Below, piece after piece: positions 6,495-41,646 of a DNA stretch of 64,000 bases. Both the position numbers and the translations under genes were made by a program. The notes below the pieces were generated by a model, which worked only from the letters and a program-made list of their open reading frames with translations, made no database searches and had not been told where the DNA came from. The stretch is taken from contig CAZRVT010000009.1 in NCBI GenBank assembly GCA_964603505.1, positions 309 through 64,308 of the forward strand, read 5' to 3'. Source of the DNA: an uncultured Holophagales bacterium (lineage in GTDB: Bacteria; Acidobacteriota; Thermoanaerobaculia; UBA2201). Position 1 is the stretch's first letter, and every line of letters begins with the position of its first letter.

Positions 6495-7193
6495 ATGCAA
6501 ATCCGCTGCATGGCGGTGGTATGCCTGATGGCGGCCACCCTGCTCCCCGGCTACGAGGACCGGGTCATCTCCAAAGCGTCGCAGTACGCCCCGCAGGATC
6601 TGAAGCTCCTTTTCCGAAGCTTCGAGGAGGACTTCCGCCGCGGCCTTACGAAGCCGCCGGCGGCCACACCGGAAGCCCTGGACCGTCAGATTGCGGGGCT
6701 GATCCAGCGGATCAAGCGGCAGGAGCCGATGGCGCTCGTGGTGGAGGACCTCTCGGCCGTGGCCCGGGGGACGGTGCGGCTGCTGGATCCCGCCCTCGAC
6801 GGCCGGGCGGACCCCCTCGCCTCCCACATCCGGAAGGACTTCCCCCGGTACATGGAGCGGCGGCTGACCCGGTTCCCCGTCGTTTTCTACGGCTTCGACG
6901 GCCGCCTCCTGCGAGGGGACGCCCTCGGCTTCCTCCAAGAGAATCGGCGCGAAGTCACGCCGCTGGCCCAGCTCCTGCGGCAGGACTACTCGCGGACGGG
7001 CCAGTGGGCCGACTTCACCGCCTTCGACGACCAGAGCACCGCCTTCGGCGTGGCCCAGGTCACCGCCAACCGCGCCTTCTCGGCCGTCCTCAACATCTGG
7101 TACTATGTCTGGACACGGGGAGGCGGGCGGTGGGGCCCCCTCAAACCGGCGCTCAATACAGAAAGGGTATGGCTCTTCGGCTATGGCTATTAA
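6495..7193 (+). CDS. Hypothetical protein with an N-terminal hydrophobic/signal-like segment
   Basis: MAVVCLMAATLLPG is followed by a protein-like sequence (RIKRQEPMALVVEDLSAVARG...). The antisense ORF 6414..7400 is G/P-rich junk. The end overlaps the purH start by 10 nt. Confidence 0.5.
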   Translation: MQIRCMAVVCLMAATLLPGYEDRVISKASQYAPQDLKLLFRSFEEDFRRGLTKPPAATPEALDRQIAGLIQRIKRQEPMALVVEDLSAVARGTVRLLDPALDGRADPLASHIRKDFPRYMERRLTRFPVVFYGFDGRLLRGDALGFLQENRREVTPLAQLLRQDYSRTGQWADFTAFDDQSTAFGVAQVTANRAFSAVLNIWYYVWTRGGGRWGPLKPALNTERVWLFGYGY

Positions 7194-8721
7194 GATCAGG
7201 ACCGCCCTCCTCTCCACCCACTCCAAGAACGGGCTCCCCGATTTCGCCAAGTTCCTCCACGAGCGGGGGGTTACCCTCATCTCCACCGGGGGGACGGCCG
7301 CCTTCATCGAGCGGCTGGGCATTCCGGTGCGGAAGGTCTCCGACCTAACCGGCTTTCCCGAGATCCTCGGAGGCCGGGTCAAGACCCTCCACCCGGCCAT
7401 TCACGGCGGCATCCTGGCGGACACCCGGAACGCCGGCCACCTGGAGGAGCTCAAGCGCCACGGCATCGACAAGATCGACCTCGTCGTGGTGAACCTCTAC
7501 CCCTTCAAGGACGTCATCGCCAGCCGGTGCACCTTGGCGGAGGCCATCGAAAACATCGACATCGGAGGCGTGGCCCTCCTGCGGGCGGCGGCTAAGAACT
7601 ACCACTCCACGGCGGTCATCGTGGAGACCGAGGACTACGGCGCCATTCTCAAGGCGATCGAGGAGGAGGGGGGTGTCCCGCCCGATCTCGCCCAGCGCCT
7701 CGCGGTGAAGGCCTTCACCCACACCAGCGCCTACGACGCCGCCATCGCCCGCTACCTCCGCTCCCAGATGGAGGGGGAGGCGTTCCCCGAGGTCCTCCAG
7801 TGGACCCTCGAACGGGCCATGACGCTCCGCTACGGCGAAAACCCGCACCAGCCGGCCGCCCTCTACCGCCTCGAGCAGGGACGCGGCGGGCTCCACATGC
7901 TCCACCAGCACCAGGGGAAGGAGCTCTCGTTCAACAACCTCCTCGACATCGACAGCGCCCTCCGCATCGTCTCCGCCTTCAAGCGCCCGGCCTGCGTCAT
8001 CGTCAAGCACAACAGCCCGTGCGGCGTCGCCGTCGGGGCGACGGCCGAGGAGGCCTTCGCCAAGGCGTGGGCCTGCGACCCCAAGAGCGCCTTCGGCGGC
8101 ATCATCGCCTTCAACGCCCGGGTCGAGGGCGCCGTGGCCGAGGCTATCGTCCCCAACTTCATCGAGGTGGTCGTGGCTCCCGAATACGATCGGGCCGCCC
8201 TCGAGATCTTCAAGCCCAAGAAGAACGTCCGCGTCGTCACCCTCCCCGTCGAGGGGCCCCGCGCCGGGTGGGACTTCAAGCGCGTCGACGGCGGCGTCCT
8301 GGTCCAGGAGTGGGACGCCCACGAGGAGAACCTCCGCGGCGCGACCGTGGTCACCCGTCGGGCGCCGACGGAGGCCGAATGGGCCGACCTGGAGTTCGCC
8401 TGGGAGGTGGTCAAGGGGGTCAAGTCGAACGCGGTCATTTACGCCCGCGGGGGACAAACGGTGGCCCTCGGGTGCGGCCAGACCTCGCGGGTGGACGCGG
8501 CGCTCAACGCCCCTCAGAAGGCGGTCCTGCCGTTGGAGGGGAGCGTGGTGGCCTCCGACGGCTTCTTCCCCTTCCCCGACAACATCGAGGCCATCGCGGC
8601 CGCCAAGGCCACCGCCGTCGTGCAGCCGGGCGGCAGCATCAAGGACAAGGCCGTCATCGCGGCCGCCGACCGTTTCGGCCTGGCCATGGTGTTTACCGGC
8701 TGCCGGCACTTCCGGCACTGA
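7184..8721 (+). CDS. purH: Bifunctional AICAR formyltransferase / IMP cyclohydrolase
   Basis: [18 protein letters not shown]...GGTAAFIE...[10 protein letters not shown] and the full-length match to the PurH architecture. Start taken at the [10 protein letters not shown] rather than track start 7105. Confidence 0.95.
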
Positions 8722-8728
8722 TCCTCCC

Positions 8729-9136
8729 ATGAAGGCCCGCCGCGTCCCCGTGGTTCTGCGCTTCGCCGACGGCCGGATGGAGAAGTGCTTCGTGAGCCCC
8801 TACTTCTCCCACAGCCTCCGGGTGGTCCAGGTCATCCGCGAGGACCGGTCGGTCGTCACCCATCCCATCGAGTCGCTCAAGGCGGTCTTCTTCGTCCGCG
8901 ACCTGGACGGCCGGGGCCACCCGCGAGGGCACTGGAAGGAGGAAGACCCCGAGGCCCTCAAGGCCGGTCGGGCGGTGGTGGTGCACTTCGCCGACGGCGA
9001 GCGCATCCGCGGGAGGGTGCTGGGCGACCCTGGGCAGGGGGCGGGCTTCTTTGTCTACCCCACCGAGCCCGGGTCCAATAACCTCAAGGTCTTCGTGGTC
9101 CGCGCCTCGACCACGGCCGTGGAAACCGAGGCATGA
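8729..9136 (+). CDS. Small protein with two tandem Sm-like strand motifs (paralog A of a three-member family in this window)
   Basis: Two repeats of the pattern V-x-V-x-F-x-DG-x-x-x-x-G/C-x-V: [15 protein letters not shown] and [17 protein letters not shown], plus GFFVYP and NNLKVFVV. It shares the motif architecture of the proteins at 40633..41058 and 39210..39590. Confidence 0.6.
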
Positions 9137-9642
9137 CCCTCCTCCTCCTGCTGGCGCTGACGCTTCACGACCTCGGGCGCACCCTGGCGGCCCACTCCGC
9201 TTTCACCGCCCGTTTCCGCCAGTCCGTGGCCCTCCCCTCCGGCGAGACCCTGGAGGAAAAAGGGACCGTGGCGTTCGTCTGGGGGAAAGGGCTGCGCTTC
9301 GATTACGCGGGAGGGGTGGGCAAGGCGTTCGTCTTCACCGCGGACGGCTGGTATTCGCGGGAAGGGGCCGCGGAGTGGAATTTCCAGCCCTGGGACGGCG
9401 CTTCTCCCCAGATGCATCCCTTCACCTTTCTCCTGGACGGCCGGGTGCCCGAAGGGGTCGCCTGGACCGTGACCGGCGCCGGAAACGCCGTGGAGGTCGC
9501 TTCAGCGAATCCCGTCTTCACCCTCACCCTCGACCGCCGCACCGGCTGGCCCCTCCGCTTCCAGGTGGATCAGGAGGACGGAAGCCGGAACACGCTGGAG
9601 TTCTCCGGCCACCGGGCCGAGGTGCGGGAGCTGATGCCTTGA
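9133..9642 (+). CDS. LolA-like outer-membrane lipoprotein carrier / LolA-fold protein
   Basis: N-terminal signal peptide [23 protein letters not shown] followed by FTARFRQ. Size (169 aa) and beta-rich composition fit a LolA/LppX fold. ATGA overlap with the upstream gene. Confidence 0.5.
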   Translation: MTLLLLLALTLHDLGRTLAAHSAFTARFRQSVALPSGETLEEKGTVAFVWGKGLRFDYAGGVGKAFVFTADGWYSREGAAEWNFQPWDGASPQMHPFTFLLDGRVPEGVAWTVTGAGNAVEVASANPVFTLTLDRRTGWPLRFQVDQEDGSRNTLEFSGHRAEVRELMP

Positions 9643-10613
9643 CCCTCGACGATTACGCCCTCCGCCTCAAGACCCAGATGGAAGCCATGGAGGCCCTCCT
9701 CCTGCGGGAACTGGAGCGCAGCCCGGAGGCCGTGGCGGCCGCCTCGCGCTACATCACCGACGCCGGGGGGAAGCGCCTCCGCCCCCTCCTCCTGCTGGCG
9801 TGCTCGGACCTGCTCGGGTACCGCCGGAAGGACCGGCTGGTCTTCGCGGCGGTGGTGGAGGCCCTCCACACCGCCACCCTCATCCACGACGACGTCATCG
9901 ACGAAGCCGATCTCCGCCGCGGCCGCCGGACTCTTCACCACGACCTGGGCAACCGTCTCTCCATCCTGGTGGGCGACTATCTCTACGCCCGGGTCATCCG
10001 CCTCGCCGTGGAGAAGGGGAACCTCGGGATCATCCAGCTCCTCTCCGACGCCACCCTGAAGATGACCGAGGGGGAGATCTGGGGCCTCACCCGGGCGGGC
10101 GATCCCCGGCTCACCATCGAGGAGTACTTCGCCCACATCGAGAACAAGACCGGCTACCTCTTCGCCGCGGCCGCCTCCATCCCCGCCCTGCTGGCCGGGC
10201 GGGAGCGTCTCGTCCGCCGGCTCCACGGGTTCGGCCTCCGGTTCGGGGTCTTCTTCCAGATCCTCGACGACCTGCAGGATTTTGCCGCCCGCGAGGAGGA
10301 GGCCGGCAAGCCGGTCATGCACGACCTCGAGGAGGGCAAGCTGGGGATCCCCATCCTGCTCCTGCTCCGGCGCCTCCGTGGGCGGGAGCGTCGGGAGGTC
10401 CTCGCCTGGCTGGAGGACGCCCCCCGCCGTCGTTACGACCTTCTGGACCGGCTGAAGGCGCACGGCACGCTCGTCGAGACCCGCGAGCTGGCCCGTGCCC
10501 ATGCCGCCGAAGCGTGTCGCGCCTTGTCGATTTTTCCGGCTTCCCCCGCTCTGGAGCTCCTTACCGCCCTTCCGGAGCGGCTCCTCTCCCTCCCCGCCTT
10601 TTCTCGTCTGTAG
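9639..10613 (+). CDS. Polyprenyl diphosphate synthase (IspB-type, trans-prenyltransferase)
   Basis: GGKRLRP, LIHDDVIDEADLRRG (first DDxxD) and FQILDDLQD (second DDxxD). Start uncertain: TTG at 9639 overlapping the LolA-like stop, or ATG at 9678. Confidence 0.85.
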   Translation: MTLDDYALRLKTQMEAMEALLLRELERSPEAVAAASRYITDAGGKRLRPLLLLACSDLLGYRRKDRLVFAAVVEALHTATLIHDDVIDEADLRRGRRTLHHDLGNRLSILVGDYLYARVIRLAVEKGNLGIIQLLSDATLKMTEGEIWGLTRAGDPRLTIEEYFAHIENKTGYLFAAAASIPALLAGRERLVRRLHGFGLRFGVFFQILDDLQDFAAREEEAGKPVMHDLEEGKLGIPILLLLRRLRGRERREVLAWLEDAPRRRYDLLDRLKAHGTLVETRELARAHAAEACRALSIFPASPALELLTALPERLLSLPAFSRL

Positions 10614-13055: not shown

Positions 13056-14084
13056 TCAGCGGCCGCGAAACCGGTAGTGGGCCACCATCCACTCCCGCCC
13101 GCCCCGGTAGCCGAACAACTCGGCGCAGGCCATGAAGAAGACCCGCCAGAGGCGGAGGCGCTTGAGCCCCTCGCCGGGGCCGTAGACCTCCTGCAGGGCC
13201 TTCAGAGCCGCGGCCCGGTGGCGGTCCAGGCGGGACAGCCACGCCTCGCAGGTGCGCTGATAGTGGGTCCCGTCCACGAGCCATCGCTCCTCGATCAACA
13301 AGTCCTTTAGGAAGTGGAGGAGGAGGTCGGCCGAGGGCATCGTCCCCCCGGTGAAGAAATACCGCGCCATCCAGTCGGAGGCGTCGCGCACCTCGAAGGG
13401 GTAGGCGGCGGTGCGGTGGCAGAAGATATGGACGAAGCAGCGTCCCCCGGGCCGCATCCACGAGGCGATGCGCTCCATGAGGCGGCCGTAGTTGCGGACA
13501 TGCTCAAACATCTCCACCGAGACCACGCGGTCGAAGGTCCCCGCCGGGGCGAAAGCGTTGATGTCGGCGGTGGCCACGGCGACGTTGGACAGCCCCCGCT
13601 CCCGGGCCCGCGCCTCGATGAAGGCCTTCTGCGACGCGGAGTTCGAGACGGCGGTGATCCGGCTCTTCGGGAACCGCTCGGCCACAAACAGCGTCAGCGA
13701 GCCCCAGCCGCACCCCAGCTCCAGCACCTCCTGCCCGTCCTGGAGCAGGGCCCGGCGGGCCGTGAGGTCCAGCATCGCCTCCTCGGAGGCGTCGAGGGTC
13801 GCGGTCCCCTCGGGCCAGAGGCCGCACGAATATTTCATGCGCCGGCCCATCACCTGCTCGAAGAAGGCGGCGGGGACCTCGTAGTGCTGGGCGTTGGCGT
13901 CCTCGACGCTCAGCGCAATGGGGGACTCGCGGAGGGTCCGGAGGAACGCCTGGAGCCGCTCCTCCTGCCGGGCGGGGTCGGCCGCGGCCTCCTCCCGGAG
14001 GCGGGCGGTGAGGAGTCGGCGGATGCCGAGGCGGATCAGGGGATCGGGCAGGAGGCCCTTTTCGATCAGGGGGCGGAAGTCCAT
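13056..14084 (-). CDS. Cyclopropane-fatty-acyl-phospholipid synthase family SAM-dependent methyltransferase (copy 2)
   Basis: VLELGCGWGSL (SAM motif I) and the CFA-synthase-type ends YSCGLWPEGT, FEHV, YFFTGG. It is the last gene of the fatty-acid-modification operon. Confidence 0.85.
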   Translation of the reverse strand: MDFRPLIEKGLLPDPLIRLGIRRLLTARLREEAAADPARQEERLQAFLRTLRESPIALSVEDANAQHYEVPAAFFEQVMGRRMKYSCGLWPEGTATLDASEEAMLDLTARRALLQDGQEVLELGCGWGSLTLFVAERFPKSRITAVSNSASQKAFIEARARERGLSNVAVATADINAFAPAGTFDRVVSVEMFEHVRNYGRLMERIASWMRPGGRCFVHIFCHRTAAYPFEVRDASDWMARYFFTGGTMPSADLLLHFLKDLLIEERWLVDGTHYQRTCEAWLSRLDRHRAAALKALQEVYGPGEGLKRLRLWRVFFMACAELFGYRGGREWMVAHYRFRGR

Positions 14085-14087
14085 GAC

Positions 14088-14882
14088 CTATCCTTTTTCG
14101 CGGCGCCTGGGGAACCAGGGAACGAAGGCGGAGGTGGTGCGGATGTAGTCGGCATAGTCCTCGCCCCGGGTGCGGAGGGCCTGGGCCTCGGTGGCGGGGA
14201 TGCCGGTGACGCGGAAGAGGAAATAGAGCAGCAGCGCCGGGACCAGCCAAGCCGAGACCCCAAAGGGAGAAGGGGTGGCCATCAGGGCGAATCCGCACCA
14301 CAGAAGGGCCTCGAAGAAGTAGTTAGGGTGGCGGGAGTACCGCCACAGGCCGGCCCGGCAGGTTTTGCCCCGGTTGGCGGGGGCCTGCTTGAACCGGTGG
14401 AGCTGGAGGTCGGCCGCCGCCTCTCCGATCCAACCCAGGAACCACACCGCCGCCCCCGCCCCCTCCAGTGGATGGAAGGCTGCGGCGGGATTGCGGCTCA
14501 TCAGGAGGAAGGGGAGGGCGAAGAAGAGGTCGAGGAGCCCCTGGAACTGGAAAAAGAAGAACAGCTTGATCTCCGCCCTTGTCCCCCACTCCTTCCTCAG
14601 CTGGACATAGCGTCCCTCCTCCGGATGGCCGAGGACGCGGGTGAAGAGGAGATAGAGCCCCAGCCGCAGCCCCCAGAGGGCAGCGGCGACGGCGGCCAGC
14701 CGGCGGCGCGGCCCCCAGCCCGGGAGGACGAGGGCGAAGAGGGTGGCGAGGATGGGGATGCCGAGGGTCCATCCGAAATCGACGATGCCGGCGTTGCTCA
14801 TCCGGCGGCCGACGGCATAGAGAGTCCCCATCCAGGCGGCCATGAGGAGCAGGCCGAGCGCGGCGGCGGTCCAGGCGCTCAT
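14088..14882 (-). CDS. DUF1295 / steroid 5-alpha-reductase-like membrane protein
   Basis: Starts MSAWTAAALGLLL. A multi-TM protein whose C-terminal region (RAGLWRYSRHPNYFFEALLWCGFAL) is typical of DUF1295/ICMT-like methyltransferase-fold membrane proteins. The N-terminal extension in the track ORF is spurious. ATGA overlap with the desaturase stop. Confidence 0.7.
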   Translation of the reverse strand: MSAWTAAALGLLLMAAWMGTLYAVGRRMSNAGIVDFGWTLGIPILATLFALVLPGWGPRRRLAAVAAALWGLRLGLYLLFTRVLGHPEEGRYVQLRKEWGTRAEIKLFFFFQFQGLLDLFFALPFLLMSRNPAAAFHPLEGAGAAVWFLGWIGEAAADLQLHRFKQAPANRGKTCRAGLWRYSRHPNYFFEALLWCGFALMATPSPFGVSAWLVPALLLYFLFRVTGIPATEAQALRTRGEDYADYIRTTSAFVPWFPRRREKG

Positions 14883-15751
14883 CGTCCCCCTCCCGTTCCC
14901 GCGGCCAGGACCGCCGGGGCGGGGCCGTGGAGCCCGCGCACCAACCCCATCCAGGAGGCGGCCCGGAGGAGATAATGGGTGGGGTCGAACTCCCACCAGA
15001 AGAACCCCTGCCGCTCGGAGATGGGGTAGTGGTGGTGGTTGTTGTGCCACCCCTCGCCCAGGGTCAGAAGCGCAATGAACGGATTGTTCCGGCTGGTGTC
15101 CTTCGTGGCGTAGCGGCGGCTGCCCCACACATGGGCCAGCGAGTTGACGGAGAAGGTGGCGTGGTAGAGCAGGACGGTGGAGAGGAAAAACCCCCACGCC
15201 AGCAGCTGCAGTCCGCCGGTCCCCAGGGCCGGGGCGCGGGCGGCCAGGACCTGCCCCGCGGCGAAGAGGGCGGCGGCCAGGCCGACGGGGACGAGGGCGT
15301 GGAAGCGGGTCAGGAAGACCAGCTCGGGGAAGGGCGTCCAGTCCTTCACCCGCGACGGGTCCCAGCTCTCGTTGGCCTTGCACAGGATCCATCCCATGTG
15401 CGCCCACCAAAACCCCTTGACCGAGGGGGAGTGGGGGTCGTTCTCGGTGTCGGTGGCCGCGTGGTGGCCCCGGTGGTGGGCGGCCCACCAGAGGGGGCCC
15501 ATCTGCCCCGCGGAGGTGCCGAGGAGGGCCAGGAGGAACTGGACCGCGCGGCCCGTCCGGTAGGAGCGGTGGGAAAAGTAACGGTGGAAGCCGGCCGTGA
15601 TGCCGAACATCCGGACGAGGTAGAGGCCGGCCGCGGCGCCCGCCGCGGTCCAGGAGAACTCCGCGAAGGGCAGGAGGAGGAGCCCCGCGTGGACCGAGAT
15701 GAACGGAAGGCTGCCGACGAGGTCCAGCCGCTCGTCCGGCCGGCGCGTCAC
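14879..15751 (-). CDS. Membrane fatty-acid desaturase, delta-9 (stearoyl-CoA/acyl-lipid desaturase) family
   Basis: Three histidine boxes: HRYFSH (HxxxxH), HHRGHH (HxxHH), HNNHHHYP (HxxHH). GTG start overlapping the upstream Cfa stop (GTGA). The rest of the 494-aa track ORF is a spurious in-frame extension. Confidence 0.8.
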   Translation of the reverse strand: MTRRPDERLDLVGSLPFISVHAGLLLLPFAEFSWTAAGAAAGLYLVRMFGITAGFHRYFSHRSYRTGRAVQFLLALLGTSAGQMGPLWWAAHHRGHHAATDTENDPHSPSVKGFWWAHMGWILCKANESWDPSRVKDWTPFPELVFLTRFHALVPVGLAAALFAAGQVLAARAPALGTGGLQLLAWGFFLSTVLLYHATFSVNSLAHVWGSRRYATKDTSRNNPFIALLTLGEGWHNNHHHYPISERQGFFWWEFDPTHYLLRAASWMGLVRGLHGPAPAVLAAGTGGGR

Positions 15752-17007
15752 GCGGCCCCTCCCCCGAGGGAGTGGTTGCCGGGGCGGGTCAGGACCAGCT
15801 GGAGGTCGTTGAGGTGTCGGGCCCGGAAGCCGGCTTCGCAATAAGCGAAATAGTATTCCCAGGCGCGCAGGAACCGCTCGTCCCGCCCCTGGGCGAGGGC
15901 CTCCTCCCGGTGGGCCAGGAGGGCCTCCCGCCAGGCCCGGAGGGTGGGGGGGTAGTGGGGGCCGATGTTCTCCAAATGCTCCACCGTCAGCGCGGAGTGG
16001 CGCGTCATGGCCGCCGACAGCGCCGTGAGGGAGGGGAGGAGAGCGCCGGGGAAGATCGCCCTCTGGATCCAATCGCCGGTCCGGCGATAGGCCTCGTACC
16101 GCTGGTCCGGGATGGTGATCACCTGCACCACCGCCAGTCCGTCGGGCTTCAGGAGGCGGTCGAGGGCCCGGAAGAAGGCGGGGAAATTCTCGTGCCCGAC
16201 CGCCTCCAGCATCTCGATGGAGACGATCCGGTCGAAGGCGCCCTCCAGCCGCCGGAAGTCGCGCAGGAGCACCTCCACCCGCCCTTCCAATCCGGCCTCT
16301 CGCACCCGCTCCCGGGCGAGGCGGTGTTGTTCCTCGGAGATGGTCACGGTCGTCACCCGGCAACCCGCGGAGGCCGCGGCCTCCAGGGCGAACGAGCCCC
16401 AGCCGGAGCCGATCTCGAGGAGGTGGTGTTCCGGCGCCAGTCGGGCCTTCTCCAGGACCGCCCGCAGTTTCCGGCGCTGGGCCTGTTCCAGCGTGTCCCC
16501 CTCACGCCAAAGGGCGCAGGAGTAGGTCATGGTGGGGTCGAGGAAGAGACGGAAGAAATCGTTGCCCAGGTCGTAGTGGCGGCGGATGTTGCGGCGGCTG
16601 CCCGGCACGGTGTTCCGGTTCAACCGGTGGCGGATCCGGTGGAGGAGGCGGCCGAGCGCCGCGGAGCCGATCCGGCGGTCGTCCACCGCGGCCGCGTTCC
16701 GGATCAGGAACTCGATCAGCCCGGGCAGGTCGGGGGTCTCCCAGTCGCCGTCCACGAAGGCGTCGCCGAAGCCGAGGTCCGCCTCCAGAAGGACGCGGCG
16801 GAAGAACCGTTCCCGGCGGACCCACAGGGCCGCCACCGGGCCCCCGGACGGGCCGAAGGCGAGCGAGGCGCCGTCGGGAAGAGACATCATCAGGCGCCCT
16901 TCCCGGATCCGCGCCAGCATCCCCAGCACGGGCCGGCGGGCGAGCCGGTCGAGCGGTCTGGGGCGGGCGGGGGGGGCGTCGAGGATCCATTCATCGGGTT
17001 CGGTCAT
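15748..17007 (-). CDS. Cyclopropane-fatty-acyl-phospholipid synthase family SAM-dependent methyltransferase (copy 1)
   Basis: LLEIGSGWGSFAL (motif I) and the Cfa-type MTYSCALW, IEMLEAVGHENF, YFAYCEAGF. Confidence 0.9.
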   Translation of the reverse strand: MTEPDEWILDAPPARPRPLDRLARRPVLGMLARIREGRLMMSLPDGASLAFGPSGGPVAALWVRRERFFRRVLLEADLGFGDAFVDGDWETPDLPGLIEFLIRNAAAVDDRRIGSAALGRLLHRIRHRLNRNTVPGSRRNIRRHYDLGNDFFRLFLDPTMTYSCALWREGDTLEQAQRRKLRAVLEKARLAPEHHLLEIGSGWGSFALEAAASAGCRVTTVTISEEQHRLARERVREAGLEGRVEVLLRDFRRLEGAFDRIVSIEMLEAVGHENFPAFFRALDRLLKPDGLAVVQVITIPDQRYEAYRRTGDWIQRAIFPGALLPSLTALSAAMTRHSALTVEHLENIGPHYPPTLRAWREALLAHREEALAQGRDERFLRAWEYYFAYCEAGFRARHLNDLQLVLTRPGNHSLGGGAA

Positions 17008-17857
17008 GGGGTTTACTCCGGTCGAACAGCGCCCCCGCGCGGGCCAAAAGCGGCGAGGTGGCGAGGCGCTGGAGCAGGGGCTCGCGTCCCTTGATGAACG
17101 TGTCGGGGGAGGCGGGCTCGGGCTTGGGATGAAAAGGGAGCTTCCGGCGGTAGTAAAGCTTGGACGCCTGCCACAGGATGCGCGGCATGGTCAAGGCGGC
17201 GGTCAGGGGATGGCGGAGGGCGGCGGACAGGAGGGTTCCGCCCCCCAGGGGCCGAAGGGGCCCCCACAGGCGGGCACGGAACGCCTCCTCGCCGTCGCGG
17301 AACAGCCGGGCGGTGACGTCGAGCCCCTCGCGGGGGTCGCCGAAGGTGAACGCGTAGGTGCCGGAGCGGTCGAAGAAGGGGGAGACGTGGAAGGCCTTGG
17401 CGAACTCGTACCGGACGGGCCAGGCGCCGTCGCCCGCGGGGGTATGGAGGACATAGAGGTGGGCCTCGCCGAAGGTGTTGGCCACCTCCGCCACCGTGGC
17501 GCGCAGGGTGCCGTCCCCCCGCAGGGCGAGGAAGAACGAGACGGGGTTGAAGACATACCCGAACCACCGCGCCGAGGTGATGAGGAGGGTGCGCTCCACG
17601 CCGTCGGCGCATCCGCGCTCCTTCAGCAGGGCCAGCAGGCGCTCTTTCATCGGGCCGGCGCCGCCGCGGAGGTAGTCCCGATCCCAAAGGGAGACGGGCC
17701 GGAACCGGTTGTAGCCGAATCCCCCCAGGGTTTGGTCCAAAACAGGCAGATCGTCCAGATCGAAGAGATAGGCCAGGACGGGATACTGGAAAGCGTGCCC
17801 GACCGGTCCCAGGCGAGCGTGCATCACCCGGCCCCGCACGAGGAAGGAGTTCACCAT
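16991..17857 (-). CDS. DUF1365 family protein
   Basis: Starts MVNSFLVRGRVMHARLGPVGHAFQYPVLAYLFDLDDL, characteristic of DUF1365 (commonly encoded between an amine-oxidase-like gene and cfa). The rest of the 625-aa track ORF is spurious. Confidence 0.7.
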   Translation of the reverse strand: MVNSFLVRGRVMHARLGPVGHAFQYPVLAYLFDLDDLPVLDQTLGGFGYNRFRPVSLWDRDYLRGGAGPMKERLLALLKERGCADGVERTLLITSARWFGYVFNPVSFFLALRGDGTLRATVAEVANTFGEAHLYVLHTPAGDGAWPVRYEFAKAFHVSPFFDRSGTYAFTFGDPREGLDVTARLFRDGEEAFRARLWGPLRPLGGGTLLSAALRHPLTAALTMPRILWQASKLYYRRKLPFHPKPEPASPDTFIKGREPLLQRLATSPLLARAGALFDRSKPHDRTR

Positions 17858-19146
17858 GCCGCTCCGAGACTCCGCGCGGCCTCGACCCCCGAACGGACGG
17901 CGTCCTCGTGGAAGCCGTTGTGGAAGTAGGCCCCGCAGAACCAGGTGCGCCGGGTCCCGTTGAGGCCGGGGAGGAGGGCCTGCGTGGCCACCGCCTCGCG
18001 CGTGTAGAGGGGATGGGCGAACTCCACCGATTCGATGACCCGATCCGGGGCGACGGCGGCGCGCCGATTGAGGGTGACGAGATACTCCTCCCGCGTCCGA
18101 AGCCCCTGCAGACGGTTCATGTGATAGGTCAACGAAACCGGGTCGCCGGGCGCGGCGCCGCGCTCCCGGGCGTAGTTCCACGAGGCCCACGCGCTCCGCG
18201 CCCGCGGAAGGACCGAGGCGTCGGTGTGGAGGATGGTGAGGTTGCGCGAATAGCGCCAGGCCCCCAGGAGGCGGCGCTCCTCCTCGGAAGGGTCGGCCAG
18301 GAGGGCCAGGGCCTCGTCGGCGTGGGTCGCCACGACGGCATGGTCGAACCGCTCCTCCGTCCCCCCGAAGCGGACGCGCACCCCCCCCTCCTCCCGGAGG
18401 AGGGCCTCCACGCGACAGGCCGTCCGCACCGTCCCGGCGAACCGCCGCAGGAACGCGTCCACATACGACCGGCTCCCCCCTGCGACGGTCTGCCAGCGGG
18501 GGCGGTCCCTCAGGGAGAGGAGCCCGTGGTTGCGGAAAAACCGCATGAAAGCGGCGGCGGGAAACTCCAGGATCCGGCCCGGGGCCGCCGACCAGATGGC
18601 CGCCCCCATCGGAAGGAGGTAACGCTCGCGGAACGGGGCCGAGTAGCCCCCCTCCTGGAGATACGCCCCCATCGTCACCGTCTCCAGGTCCCTCCGCCCC
18701 CGCAGGTCCTCCAGCGCCGAGCGGCTGAACCGCCGGATCTCCCACAGCATGCTCCAGAAGGCCGGGGAGAAGAGGTTCCGCCGCCGGGAAAAGAGGCCGT
18801 TGAGGGTCGTTCCGGCGTAGTGGAACCCGCTGGTCTCGTCGTGGTAGGCGAAGGACATGTCGCTCCACCGCCAGGCGACCCCGAGGTCGGCCAGCAACCG
18901 GTGGAGGGTGGGGTAGGTGCGGTCGTTGAGGACGATAAAGCCCATGTCCACCCGGGTCCCGGCGTCCGGCCCGGAAGGGACTTCGACCGTGTGGACATGT
19001 CCCCCCAGCCGGGGGCCCTTCTCGAAGAGGGTGACCCGGTGGCGCCCCTGGAGGAGGTGGGCGGCGGCGATCCCCGCCGCCCCCCCGCCGATGACGGCGA
19101 CGGTGCCGGGTGGCGGGGGGGGCATGGGCGTGGAGGGGGCGGGCAT
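17851..19146 (-). CDS. FAD/NAD(P)-binding amine-oxidase-family oxidoreductase (COG2907 type, UfaD-like)
   Basis: Dinucleotide-binding motif VAVIGGGAAGIAAAHLL and a flavin amine oxidase-like C-terminus (FCGAYFHNGFHEDAVRSG). Start set at MPAPSTP (19146) rather than track start 19230. Confidence 0.8.
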   Translation of the reverse strand: MPAPSTPMPPPPPGTVAVIGGGAAGIAAAHLLQGRHRVTLFEKGPRLGGHVHTVEVPSGPDAGTRVDMGFIVLNDRTYPTLHRLLADLGVAWRWSDMSFAYHDETSGFHYAGTTLNGLFSRRRNLFSPAFWSMLWEIRRFSRSALEDLRGRRDLETVTMGAYLQEGGYSAPFRERYLLPMGAAIWSAAPGRILEFPAAAFMRFFRNHGLLSLRDRPRWQTVAGGSRSYVDAFLRRFAGTVRTACRVEALLREEGGVRVRFGGTEERFDHAVVATHADEALALLADPSEEERRLLGAWRYSRNLTILHTDASVLPRARSAWASWNYARERGAAPGDPVSLTYHMNRLQGLRTREEYLVTLNRRAAVAPDRVIESVEFAHPLYTREAVATQALLPGLNGTRRTWFCGAYFHNGFHEDAVRSGVEAARSLGAAW

Positions 19147-38957: not shown

Positions 38958-39074
38958 GCCCACCCCCAGCCGATCCTGCCCGTAGGAACCGATGTCGTTT
39001 TTCGTGCGCTTGTCAAGCCCCGATGAAGCCCATTTTTATGTTGCGAGATCCGGAGAGAGCCAGTTTTTCCAGGG

Positions 39075-39585
39075 CGGGGGGACCCCGCAACGTTCAGCGC
39101 GGAACTGGGAATTGCCTTGGAGGGGCGGCGGGATCGCCGCCGTCGGCCTGCTCCCGGCAAGACGAGTTTCCGAAGCCTCAAGTCCGAACGGCCTCGACCC
39201 CCGCCGGGGTCAGATGATTTTTTTCTCGTCCAACGGATGGATGAGATGGTGCACGCTCCGCACCGCCTCGCGGTTGACCCAGACGCGGATGTTGTTGGTG
39301 ACGGGGTCGGCGGGGACCACATAGAAGCCGACGGCCTGGGGGAGACGGGCGACGTCGTTGACGAACCCCTCCATCATCTCCCCGTCCTTGAAGACGACCC
39401 GCACCTTCTGCCCGGAGCTGAGGGTGAAGGTCTGCCGGCCGGCCTGGGCCTTCACCCCCGTCCCCTCGAACGACTTCACGTAAAAGGCGCCCTTGACCTT
39501 CTTCAGGTCCACCCAGTGGATCTTCTCCTCCAGGTCCTTGAACTCCAGGACGGTCTCCCCGGGGGCGATGACGGAGCCGAACCCC
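39075..39585. repeat. Direct repeat copy 1 (511 bp, identical to 40498..41008)
   Basis: A base-for-base identical sequence appears twice. The six-frame track shows identical peptides from both copies (e.g. GGGTPQRSARNWELPWRGGGIAAVGLLPARR... and MWSPPTPSPTTSASGSTARRCGACTISS...). Confidence 0.95.
39196..39224 (+). terminator. Possible intrinsic terminator (plus-strand orientation) inside repeat copy 1: GACCCC-cgcc-GGGGTC then agatga TTTTTTT
   Basis: A 6-bp GC stem with a 7-T run 6 nt downstream. It could terminate the kinase transcript. The identical element in copy 2 (40619..40647) follows hepT. Confidence 0.4.
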
Positions 39586-39590
39586 CGCAA
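39210..39590 (-). pseudogene. 5'-truncated copy of the tandem Sm-like-motif small protein (lacks the first ~16 codons; TTG is the only available start)
   Basis: Residues 2-126 are identical to residues 17-141 of the 40633..41058 product. The repeat boundary falls inside the coding sequence. The frame is open upstream to a TAA with no ATG. Confidence 0.5.
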
Positions 39591-39600
39591 CGATGGTTCC

Positions 39601-39629
39601 TTGTAAATGGACGGAATCTTTGGGATAAT
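39601..39629 (+). promoter_or_regulatory. Sigma-70-like promoter TTGTAA-17 nt-GATAAT ending 6 nt before the MNT GTG start (leaderless transcript)
   Basis: Hexamers with a 17-nt spacer. A start codon directly at the expected +1 is typical of toxin-antitoxin operons. Confidence 0.5.
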
Positions 39630-39635
39630 GGAATC

Positions 39636-40052
39636 GTGCAGAGCGATCAGGAGCGTATCGTCCAGACGGTTTTAGCGCTCCACCCACGAGCGGAGGCCGT
39701 CTATCTCTTCGGGTCCTTCGGGACCGAGGGAGAGTTGCCGGGCAGCGACGCCGACATCGCCATCCTACTTCCTGCCGGAGAGGCCGCGGCTGGCGGTGCT
39801 CTGGGGTTGATCGAGACGCGGTTCGCCCTGGAGAAGGTCTTGGGAAGGGGGGTGGACCTGCTGAATCTGCGGTGCGTGCCCACCGTCCTCCAGAAGGAAG
39901 TGATTCTGGCGGAGAGGCGTATCTACTGCGGGGATCCCTTCGCCGCCGACACTTTTGAAATGCTTGTGCTCTCCCTTTATCAGAAGTTGAACGAGGAACG
40001 GCGGGGCATCCTGGAAGAGGGGTTGAGAAGCGGGAGGTTCTTCGCCGGATGA
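39636..40052 (+). CDS. mntA: MNT-type nucleotidyltransferase antitoxin of a HepT/MNT toxin-antitoxin pair
   Basis: LFGSFGTEGELPGSDADIAIL (GSx9-13DxD nucleotidyltransferase motif). Start set at the GTG giving MQSDQERIVQTV. ATGA overlap with hepT. Confidence 0.8.
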   Translation: MQSDQERIVQTVLALHPRAEAVYLFGSFGTEGELPGSDADIAILLPAGEAAAGGALGLIETRFALEKVLGRGVDLLNLRCVPTVLQKEVILAERRIYCGDPFAADTFEMLVLSLYQKLNEERRGILEEGLRSGRFFAG

Positions 40053-40468
40053 ACGACGTCCTGATCAATAAAAGGGAAAGCATCGAGCGGTGCATTCGCC
40101 AGGCCCGGGAATACTACCGGCGGGAAAGCGGGGTCCCGTTCAGCGAGGATTTTCTGAAACAGGATGCCATCGCCATCAATATCCAGCGGGCATGCGAACA
40201 GGCCATTGACCTTGCCAATCATCTCATCCGAACGCACAAACTCGGGCTTCCCAAGGAGAGCCGGGAAAGCTTTATCATCCTGGCGCGCTTCGGACTCATT
40301 CCCGCGGACCTGTCGGAACGGCTGCAACGGATGGTGGGCTTCCGGAACATTTTGATTCATCAGTACCAGGTCCTGGATCTGGGCATCCTCGTGGATATCG
40401 TCCAAAACCGCCTGCAGGACCTTCTGGATTTTGCCGACCGAGTTTGCACGGAAGCCGGGATCGAGTAG
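40049..40468 (+). CDS. hepT: HepT (DUF86) RNase toxin
   Basis: RNILIHQY (Rx4HxY catalytic motif) and the ~139-aa size typical of HepT. Confidence 0.8.
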   Translation: MNDVLINKRESIERCIRQAREYYRRESGVPFSEDFLKQDAIAINIQRACEQAIDLANHLIRTHKLGLPKESRESFIILARFGLIPADLSERLQRMVGFRNILIHQYQVLDLGILVDIVQNRLQDLLDFADRVCTEAGIE

Positions 40469-40497
40469 GTTTCCCGAGTTCTTGGATTGTTCCCAGG

Positions 40498-41008
40498 CGG
40501 GGGGACCCCGCAACGTTCAGCGCGGAACTGGGAATTGCCTTGGAGGGGCGGCGGGATCGCCGCCGTCGGCCTGCTCCCGGCAAGACGAGTTTCCGAAGCC
40601 TCAAGTCCGAACGGCCTCGACCCCCGCCGGGGTCAGATGATTTTTTTCTCGTCCAACGGATGGATGAGATGGTGCACGCTCCGCACCGCCTCGCGGTTGA
40701 CCCAGACGCGGATGTTGTTGGTGACGGGGTCGGCGGGGACCACATAGAAGCCGACGGCCTGGGGGAGACGGGCGACGTCGTTGACGAACCCCTCCATCAT
40801 CTCCCCGTCCTTGAAGACGACCCGCACCTTCTGCCCGGAGCTGAGGGTGAAGGTCTGCCGGCCGGCCTGGGCCTTCACCCCCGTCCCCTCGAACGACTTC
40901 ACGTAAAAGGCGCCCTTGACCTTCTTCAGGTCCACCCAGTGGATCTTCTCCTCCAGGTCCTTGAACTCCAGGACGGTCTCCCCGGGGGCGATGACGGAGC
41001 CGAACCCC
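40498..41008. repeat. Direct repeat copy 2 (511 bp, identical to 39075..39585)
   Basis: See copy 1. In this copy the repeat ends inside the intact small gene (codon ~17). Confidence 0.95.
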
Positions 41009-41058
41009 TTCATCAACGAGCCGTCCAAGAACTTCAGCACCATGATGCTGTCGAACAT
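40633..41058 (-). CDS. Small protein with two tandem Sm-like strand motifs (paralog B, intact copy)
   Basis: VLKFLDGSLMKGFGSV and VRVVFKDGEMMEGFVNDV, then GFYVVPADPVTNNIRVWVN. Same motif architecture as 8729..9136 ([15 protein letters not shown] / [15 protein letters not shown] / GFFVYP...NNLKVFVV). Confidence 0.6.
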   Translation of the reverse strand: MFDSIMVLKFLDGSLMKGFGSVIAPGETVLEFKDLEEKIHWVDLKKVKGAFYVKSFEGTGVKAQAGRQTFTLSSGQKVRVVFKDGEMMEGFVNDVARLPQAVGFYVVPADPVTNNIRVWVNREAVRSVHHLIHPLDEKKII

Positions 41059-41213: not shown

Positions 41214-41646
41214 CTAAGAGATCGGCCGGTCCAGGAGGGGGAGGAACGGGGCCAACAGGGGCTCCACGGCCGCCGGGGGCCGCCCCATGATCGTGACGGT
41301 CACCTGCCGGCCGCCGAAGGAAACGCGGATGGAGGTGGAGTTCCCCCTCATGTCCAGGTCCTTGCTCGTGTAGAGCGGCTTGAAGGCCGCGAAGTCCAGC
41401 GCCCGGACCCGCTCCACGAGGCGCCTGTACGCCTCCTTGTCCAGCGTCCCGGAGGCCGTCCGCACCTGGGGCCGCTTGTCCATCCCTATCGAGGTGAGGG
41501 TGAGGGTGTAGTCGCGCCCGTTCAGTTCCAGGGCGCGCTTGCTCTGAAGGGTGCCGATGACCACCGTGGCCGTCAGGGGCGGCTCCGGGGCCGTAACGCA
41601 GGCGAGGGCAAGGACGCTAACGCAGGCGATCAGCCACGGCTTCCAC
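41214..41646 (-). CDS. Hypothetical lipoprotein
   Basis: GTG start giving VRWKPWLIACVSVLALACVTAPEPP (lipobox LALAC), then a protein-like mature region. 30-nt overlap with the proS end. Confidence 0.5.

Follow-up and report, generated by a model that had tools for sequence, protein, structure and literature searches.

Stand-alone DUF6982 proteins with two predicted Sm-like barrels in an uncultured Holophagales bacterium

Three small open reading frames (ORFs) of one protein family lie in the stretch of DNA analysed here, 64 kb of contig CAZRVT010000009.1 from an uncultured Holophagales bacterium (hereafter the window). Paralogue A, a stand-alone DUF6982 protein of 135 aa, is encoded at 8729..9136 on the forward strand. 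The other two are on the reverse strand: B', an intact stand-alone DUF6982 protein of 141 aa, at 40633..41058, and copy B, a 5'-truncated duplicate of B' with 126 aa and a TTG start, at 39210..39590. An earlier sequence-only reading had placed the three ORFs at these coordinates, which are borne out, and had taken them for a three-member family of tandem Sm-like proteins with an undescribed function, perhaps in RNA binding or in association with a toxin-antitoxin (TA) locus. The window holds two genes and one truncated duplicate rather than three members, and a family-profile search of its 64 kb found no fourth copy.

The DUF6982 family

A hairpin pattern had been reported twice in each ORF, in the form V-x-V-x-F. 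Its relaxed form, h-x-h-x-[FYL]-x-[DN]-G-x4-[GC]-x-h, occurs at exactly five sites in the six-frame translation of the whole 64 kb, none of them outside the three ORFs: A and B' have two each, and B has one. The count of two copies therefore holds for A and B' and fails for B, and it holds in the relaxed form, present in both barrels of A and B'; the exact V-x-V-x-F form is confined to the second barrel. The later segment said to be shared, GF[YF]VxP...NN[IL][RK]V[WF]V, is found in all three ORFs. A and B' are homologous, with 29% identity (BLASTP E 1e-12), and the isoelectric points (pI) of the window proteins are 8.9-9.6. The B' subfamily ends in a C-terminal tail, LDEKKII in the window (40633..40660) and [LM]-[DE]-E-K-[KR]-[IV]-[IL] as a consensus with orthologues P0001-P0009, which is missing from A-type and other DUF6982 members and could be a docking or degradation tag. 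Upstream of B', near its ATG, stand the sequences TAGAAT and AAGG.

The sequence-only reading recognised no named family, but the ORFs fall in Pfam PF22478 (DUF6982), where A scores 64.0 bits, B 83.6 and B' 87.9, all well clear of the curated gathering threshold of 24.5 bits. Matches to the 134 positions of the model run from 4 to 132 in A and from 5 to 133 in B', essentially its whole length, while B covers 30-133 only, as a truncated member. Every homologue retrieved bears a precomputed PF22478 label. Judged by sequence, A and B' are stand-alone members of an already catalogued, uncharacterised Pfam family, and no difference from that family was seen. An NCBIfam scan of the window proteins gave nothing relevant, and an exact-sequence look-up of P0002 gave no match. 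The expectation of an undescribed function stands: no mention of DUF6982 or PF22478 was found in the searched literature, and nothing concerning DUF6982 was found in that on PilZ together with Sm-like or tandem small beta-barrels.

The family is large and widespread. An exhaustive profile search gathered 2,398 clusters at 50% identity with E<=1e-3, 292 of them with E<=1e-30, and a scan of species-representative genomes confirmed 523 loci, from Acidobacteriota, Nitrospirota, Desulfobacterota, Eisenbacteria, NC10, Rokubacteria, Myxococcota, Gemmatimonadota and other phyla. Architectures and lengths were counted in the 150 best family representatives, 76 of which are stand-alone proteins (<=160 aa) and 41 longer than 220 aa; the stand-alone members have pI values from 6.0 to 9.9, with a median of 8.9. 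Adjacent tandem DUF6982 genes, or two modules (four barrels) in one polypeptide, occur at L021, L045, L048, L054 and L076 and in P0043 and P0044, and one metagenome-assembled genome (MAG) has at least two separate loci (L011, L034), so that multiplicity is a family trait in other genomes.

Predicted fold and conserved residues

AlphaFold2 models built with family alignments reached a predicted local distance difference test score (pLDDT) of 88.0 and a predicted template modelling score (pTM) of 0.84 for A, and 83.6 and 0.77 for B'. Each model consists of two five-stranded barrels joined by a variable, low-confidence linker. In A, barrel 1 comprises about residues 6-56 (8744..8896) and barrel 2 about residues 81-133 (8969..9127); in B', barrel 1 comprises residues 4-53 (40900..41049), the linker residues 54-75 and barrel 2 residues 76-130 (40669..40833). 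The five strongly bent antiparallel strands in a small barrel that mark Sm/LSm/Hfq proteins are present in these predicted models. The N-terminal alpha-helix that precedes strand 1 in that group is found in neither barrel of either model: strand 1 begins at residue 4 in B' and at residue 6 in A, and a coil linker precedes barrel 2. When the profiles of the N- and C-terminal barrels were aligned with hhalign they matched over strands 1-3 with a probability of 94.5% and an E value of 7.7e-8, and therefore the duplicated motif reflects a real internal duplication. The suggestion of tandem Sm-like proteins is upheld by these models, two mini-barrels of Sm/Hfq topology being predicted for both of the distantly related paralogues. 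That the DUF6982 module is made of two homologous five-stranded Sm/Hfq-like barrels, produced by internal duplication, is a well-supported prediction.

Sequence likeness to known Sm proteins is faint. Searches of PDB sequences with a single protein and with two profiles returned LSm4 as the best match, at sub-significant E values of 0.2 and 0.052, the latter alignment spanning the Sm1 hairpin and an Sm2-like segment, 'FVrgasV'. One of the 150 representatives matches Pfam SM-ATX (E 9.5e-5), and at E<=10 the window proteins give no hit to any Sm/LSm family in Pfam. An Sm2 motif was not detected in the DUF6982 barrels, and when the family profile was aligned with E. coli Hfq by hhalign, the Sm1 hairpin fell in register, at a non-significant E of 0.56. 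DUF6982 thus differs from Sm/LSm/Hfq proteins in lacking the N-terminal helix, a detectable Sm2 motif and a significant sequence match, in having two barrels per chain, and in carrying its conserved residues in other loops. The Rho-specific inhibitor YaeO/Rof, which has an Sm-like fold, and the protein-binding LSm proteins Edc3, Gemin6/7 and Naa38 are single barrels, whereas DUF6982 is double; their sequence identity to DUF6982 is 10-12%. The WYL domain, an Sm-like SH3 barrel, is likewise single, usually fused to a helix-turn-helix or WCX domain, and shows no sequence match to DUF6982; it binds single-stranded DNA and, in MbpR, is reported to bind cyclic di-GMP (c-di-GMP) (PMC11880434). A tandem Tudor fold was considered and rejected, Foldseek matching the tandem Tudor domains of 53BP1 and FMRP with template modelling scores of only 0.23-0.29, root-mean-square deviations of 12-14 A and E>=0.013.

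Near-invariant positions occur in both barrels. In B' numbering they are G13, K17, K48, F51, V53 and G58 in barrel 1, and G75, F82, D84, E86, G90, G103, F104, P108, N114 and N115 in barrel 2, and they locate to the strand1-2 turns, to strand 5 of barrel 1 and to the strand3-4 loop of barrel 2. That these residues hardly vary between phyla points to a ligand which is itself universally conserved. The binding surface may be formed by K17 and K48-x-x-F51-x-V53 of barrel 1 together with F82-x-D84-G-E86, G103-F104, P108 and N114-N115 of barrel 2, and through it the module would bind a cellular target conserved across phyla.

Genomic surroundings

Paralogue A lies in a string of genes at 6495..10613 that encodes a 232-aa product with no family match, PurH, A itself, a 169-aa protein and a polyprenyl synthase. 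purH (7183..8721, forward strand; PF02142, PF01808) is directly upstream of A, and the 169-aa protein, which has a hydrophobic N-terminus, is encoded at 9133..9642 on the same strand with its start overlapping the A stop. Among purH relatives that bear a name, the closest, such as that of Thermodesulfovibrio autotrophicus, reach at most 53% identity, so that the host lineage seems to be poorly sampled. The placement of A between purH and a LolA-like gene is right as to the order of the neighbours, although 'LolA-like' rests on a sub-threshold match to PF03548 (E 0.032, 14.4 bits against a cut-off of 23.6). The overlapping start and stop codons proposed for this locus exist at the downstream junction, where the A stop and the next start share ATGA at 9133..9136, but not at the upstream one, since purH ends at 8721, 7 nt before A. 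The 7-nt spacer (8722..8728) reads TCCTCCC and resembles an anti-Shine-Dalgarno sequence, unlike a Shine-Dalgarno sequence. Gene order around A is the same at the orthologue locus L089 (58% identity), where a 170-aa gene takes the LolA-like position, and the 6495..10613 string is conserved in the orthologue loci L082 and L089, down to that 58% identity for A.

B and B' lie in a repeat-cassette-repeat arrangement. Base-by-base comparison at offset 1423 revealed a direct repeat of 513 bp, whose first copy (39073..39585) is 100% identical to the second (40496..41008), part of the intact B' gene; it takes in the last 376 nt of the DUF6982 coding sequence and the 137 nt that follow. Between the copies, the cassette at 39586..40495 has 58% G+C, against 68% for the window, and carries on the forward strand a predicted MNT-type nucleotidyltransferase antitoxin (39636..40052; PF18765 E 2e-11, PF01909 E 7e-9) and a predicted HepT (HEPN) toxin (40049..40468; PF01934 E 1e-31). 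The MNT protein also matches PADLOC candidate-system models PDC-S09 (best E 1.8e-7), and its HepT partner matches none. The sequence-only reading had spoken of a duplicated TA locus; there is one MNT and one HepT gene flanked by two repeat copies, so the TA locus itself is not duplicated. Because B lies within a perfect repeat of B', it is not an independent paralogue, and because the repeat holds only the 3' part of the gene, B starts without the ~15 N-terminal residues of B', which form strand 1 of barrel 1, and has one motif fewer. Its TTG start stands only 5 nt past the repeat boundary. B is probably a remnant, a by-product of the 513-bp duplication that accompanies the acquired MNT-HepT cassette, rather than a further family member with a separate role. 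A perfect direct repeat around a lower-G+C MNT-HepT pair would be expected if a circle carrying the cassette and a DUF6982 gene fragment had integrated by a single crossover.

Related loci show how this arrangement compares elsewhere. An 82%-identical B' orthologue (L084) is single-copy and has no TA pair; proS and a small hypothetical gene precede it. In the window, proS and a small gene for a DUF6438-like lipoprotein come before B'; the lipoprotein gene (41214..41564, reverse strand, between proS and B') encodes a small predicted lipoprotein with a LALAC lipobox-like signal and a weak DUF6438 match (E 5e-4), and is conserved at that position in L084 and L096. A JGI contig that shows this arrangement matches the window at 100% identity and belongs to the same assembly, so it is not independent; exact junction sequences found no match in JGI metagenome contigs, a collection evidently without the source sample. 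Two short contigs from other samples, L096 and L097, with about 90-92% DNA identity, together hold, independently of the window, both repeat/cassette junctions: L096 carries proS, the DUF6438-like gene, an intact DUF6982 gene and HepT, and L097 the 5' end of MNT followed by a truncated DUF6982 copy. The recurrence of the junctions implies that the repeat-cassette-repeat structure is physical and predates the split of these populations. If both contigs represent one population, their repeat copies differ by 4.4%, and on that assumption the perfect identity of the copies in the window suggests recent gene conversion between them. The TTG start of B is TTA at the same position in L097, where the junction is kept. 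The ratio of nonsynonymous to synonymous substitution rates (dN/dS) is 0.5 for the truncated copy and 0.33 for the intact orthologue pair, with too few changes to judge selection.

Family-wide, the surroundings of DUF6982 genes were compared at the best 80 of the 523 loci, all from uncultured organisms or MAGs. No conserved neighbour gene was found across these 80 loci, all-vs-all clustering of their ORFs giving lineage-specific synteny only; the 183 Pfam families represented in 133 flanking genes each occur five times at most, and distant DUF6982 members are typically solitary among unrelated neighbours.

Elsewhere in the window, a group of reverse-strand genes at ~13056..19125 looks like a lipid-modification operon, with two cyclopropane-fatty-acid-synthase-like methyltransferases, a DUF1295/steroid-dehydrogenase-like protein, a fatty-acid desaturase, a DUF1365 protein and an amine-oxidase-type flavoprotein. 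A tRNA scan found no tRNA genes in the 64 kb, and no Rfam family reached its gathering threshold there.

Domain fusions and possible function

Some DUF6982 modules are fused to domains of signalling proteins. PilZ is found in 17 of the 150 representatives (E<=1e-3), N- or C-terminal of DUF6982, and there are single fusions to a response-regulator receiver (REC) domain, to FHA, to Macro and to DnaJ, the last in a protein with the architecture PilZ-PilZ-DnaJ-DUF6982; some long members have coiled coils, and some have two DUF6982 modules per chain. The fused PilZ domains retain the RxxxR and [DN]x[SA]xxG motifs that bind c-di-GMP, a pair present in 17 of the 47 members longer than 200 aa and in one of the 76 stand-alone members. 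Long low-complexity linkers part PilZ from DUF6982 in these fusions. PilZ, REC, FHA and Macro are receiver or reader domains, and DUF6982 is most simply read as the effector or adaptor end of such proteins. Comparable systems are PilZ-domain c-di-GMP receptors with accessory or output domains, among them YcgR and the PilZ-DnaK chaperones of Myxococcus xanthus (PMC10313047), the latter a precedent for PilZ joined to chaperone components. Many relatives of the window proteins are likewise PilZ fusions with intact motifs, whereas the window proteins themselves carry no PilZ domain and DUF6982 is itself unrelated to PilZ.

We propose that DUF6982 would act as the output or adaptor end of signalling proteins, attached to receiver-type domains and above all to PilZ, and that the stand-alone A and B' would have the same target but no sensor of their own. 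To such a signalling output or adaptor role, which follows the logic of domain architecture, we give about an even chance. As to the target, single-stranded RNA or another nucleic acid is ranked first, as a tentative choice; a conserved core-machinery protein, bound by analogy in the manner of Rof/YaeO or an Edc3-type LSm protein, comes second and is a little less probable; and a nucleotide second messenger, in third place, is unlikely. The most specific form of the proposal, in which DUF6982 would be a bacterial tandem-Sm nucleic-acid-binding output domain of PilZ, REC and FHA proteins and A and B' its constitutive forms, is improbable as a whole.

Several points weigh against this proposal. 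The fusion partners indicate a wiring into signalling and not what the module binds, and both the target and the output role are inferences. About half of the representatives (76 of 150) are stand-alone, so the fused forms may be the exception, and A lies in a housekeeping operon, with purH and polyprenyl synthase, that has no signalling flavour. For a nucleic-acid target in particular, the spread of pI among stand-alone members, from 6.0 to 9.9, is not uniformly that of nucleic-acid binders. The RNA-binding loops of Sm/Hfq proteins differ from the strand1-2 turn and the strand3-4 loop, so that in the models the near-invariant residues of DUF6982 appear to lie outside them.

The other explanations differ in how much of this evidence they can accommodate. 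DUF6982 proteins could be Hfq-like RNA chaperones, their tandem barrels assembling into rings, pseudo-hexameric or pseudo-heptameric, which would bind RNA rich in U or A and promote the pairing of small RNA with mRNA. The contact of the family profile with LSm4 at the Sm1 hairpin and 'FVrgasV', the single SM-ATX match and the mildly basic pI of the window proteins and of the median stand-alone member are in keeping with this idea, but it has to contend with barrels that lack the N-terminal helix and a detectable Sm2, with the non-significant Hfq alignment, with the missing Sm/LSm Pfam matches, with conserved residues outside the canonical RNA-binding loops and with a neighbour census that shows no linkage to RNA-metabolism genes; we consider it unlikely. 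Less likely still is that the module itself senses a small molecule such as a cyclic or linear nucleotide, as WYL does, alone or with a neighbouring PilZ. The invariant K, D-G-E, N-N and aromatic residues do resemble a ligand pocket across phyla, an Sm-like barrel of the WYL type is reported to bind c-di-GMP (PMC11880434), and A adjoins purH, whose substrate is the alarmone precursor ZMP, although that link is speculation. Yet the module has no sequence similarity to WYL or PilZ, the long low-complexity linkers argue for independent modules, and a DUF6982 input domain beside PilZ, REC or FHA inputs would leave the protein without an output.

The frequent fusion to PilZ might also be explained if DUF6982 were a degenerate PilZ or a PilZ-accessory barrel resembling YcgR-N. 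The sequence-only reading, too, had named PilZ among the folds for comparison. The explanation is hardly credible, as the hhalign probabilities against the fused PilZ domains were below 1% for each barrel and for the complete module, and the window proteins have neither the RxxxR and DxSxxG motifs nor a PilZ profile match. Very improbable, too, is a TA or defence accessory factor that travels with MNT-HepT cassettes as a mobile small-protein family, as the sequence-only reading had envisaged in its 'TA-associated factor' and 'partly mobile' family. B and B' do flank an MNT-HepT pair, in the window and in the ~90%-identical population; however, the 82%-identical orthologue lacks the cassette, paralogue A has no TA neighbour, and the 133 flanking genes scanned at the 80 loci include neither NTP_transf_2 nor HepT in their 25 most frequent families. 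PADLOC models matched no DUF6982 protein of the window, no confirmed relative was found on viral contigs in IMG/VR, and tblastn found no match on plasmids in PLSDB. With no conserved neighbour, no viral or plasmid copies and no PADLOC match, the ideas of a TA role and of mobility are unsupported; the TA or defence reading is largely refuted, and for this window the suggested link to TA and mobility is removed.

Recurrent PilZ fusion is the best lead to DUF6982 function. What is new for DUF6982 is a predicted fold of two Sm-like barrels, a set of near-invariant residues and the wiring clue given by repeated fusion to PilZ domains apparently able to bind c-di-GMP and, singly, to REC, FHA, Macro and J domains, for an uncharacterised family with thousands of clusters in environmentally dominant and genetically little-studied phyla. 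Were its target RNA or a core-machinery protein, the module would constitute a new output class for c-di-GMP signalling. Should the most specific form of the proposal be true, an Hfq-like post-transcriptional regulator would be under the direct control of c-di-GMP and phosphorylation in Acidobacteriota, Nitrospirota, Desulfobacterota and related phyla.
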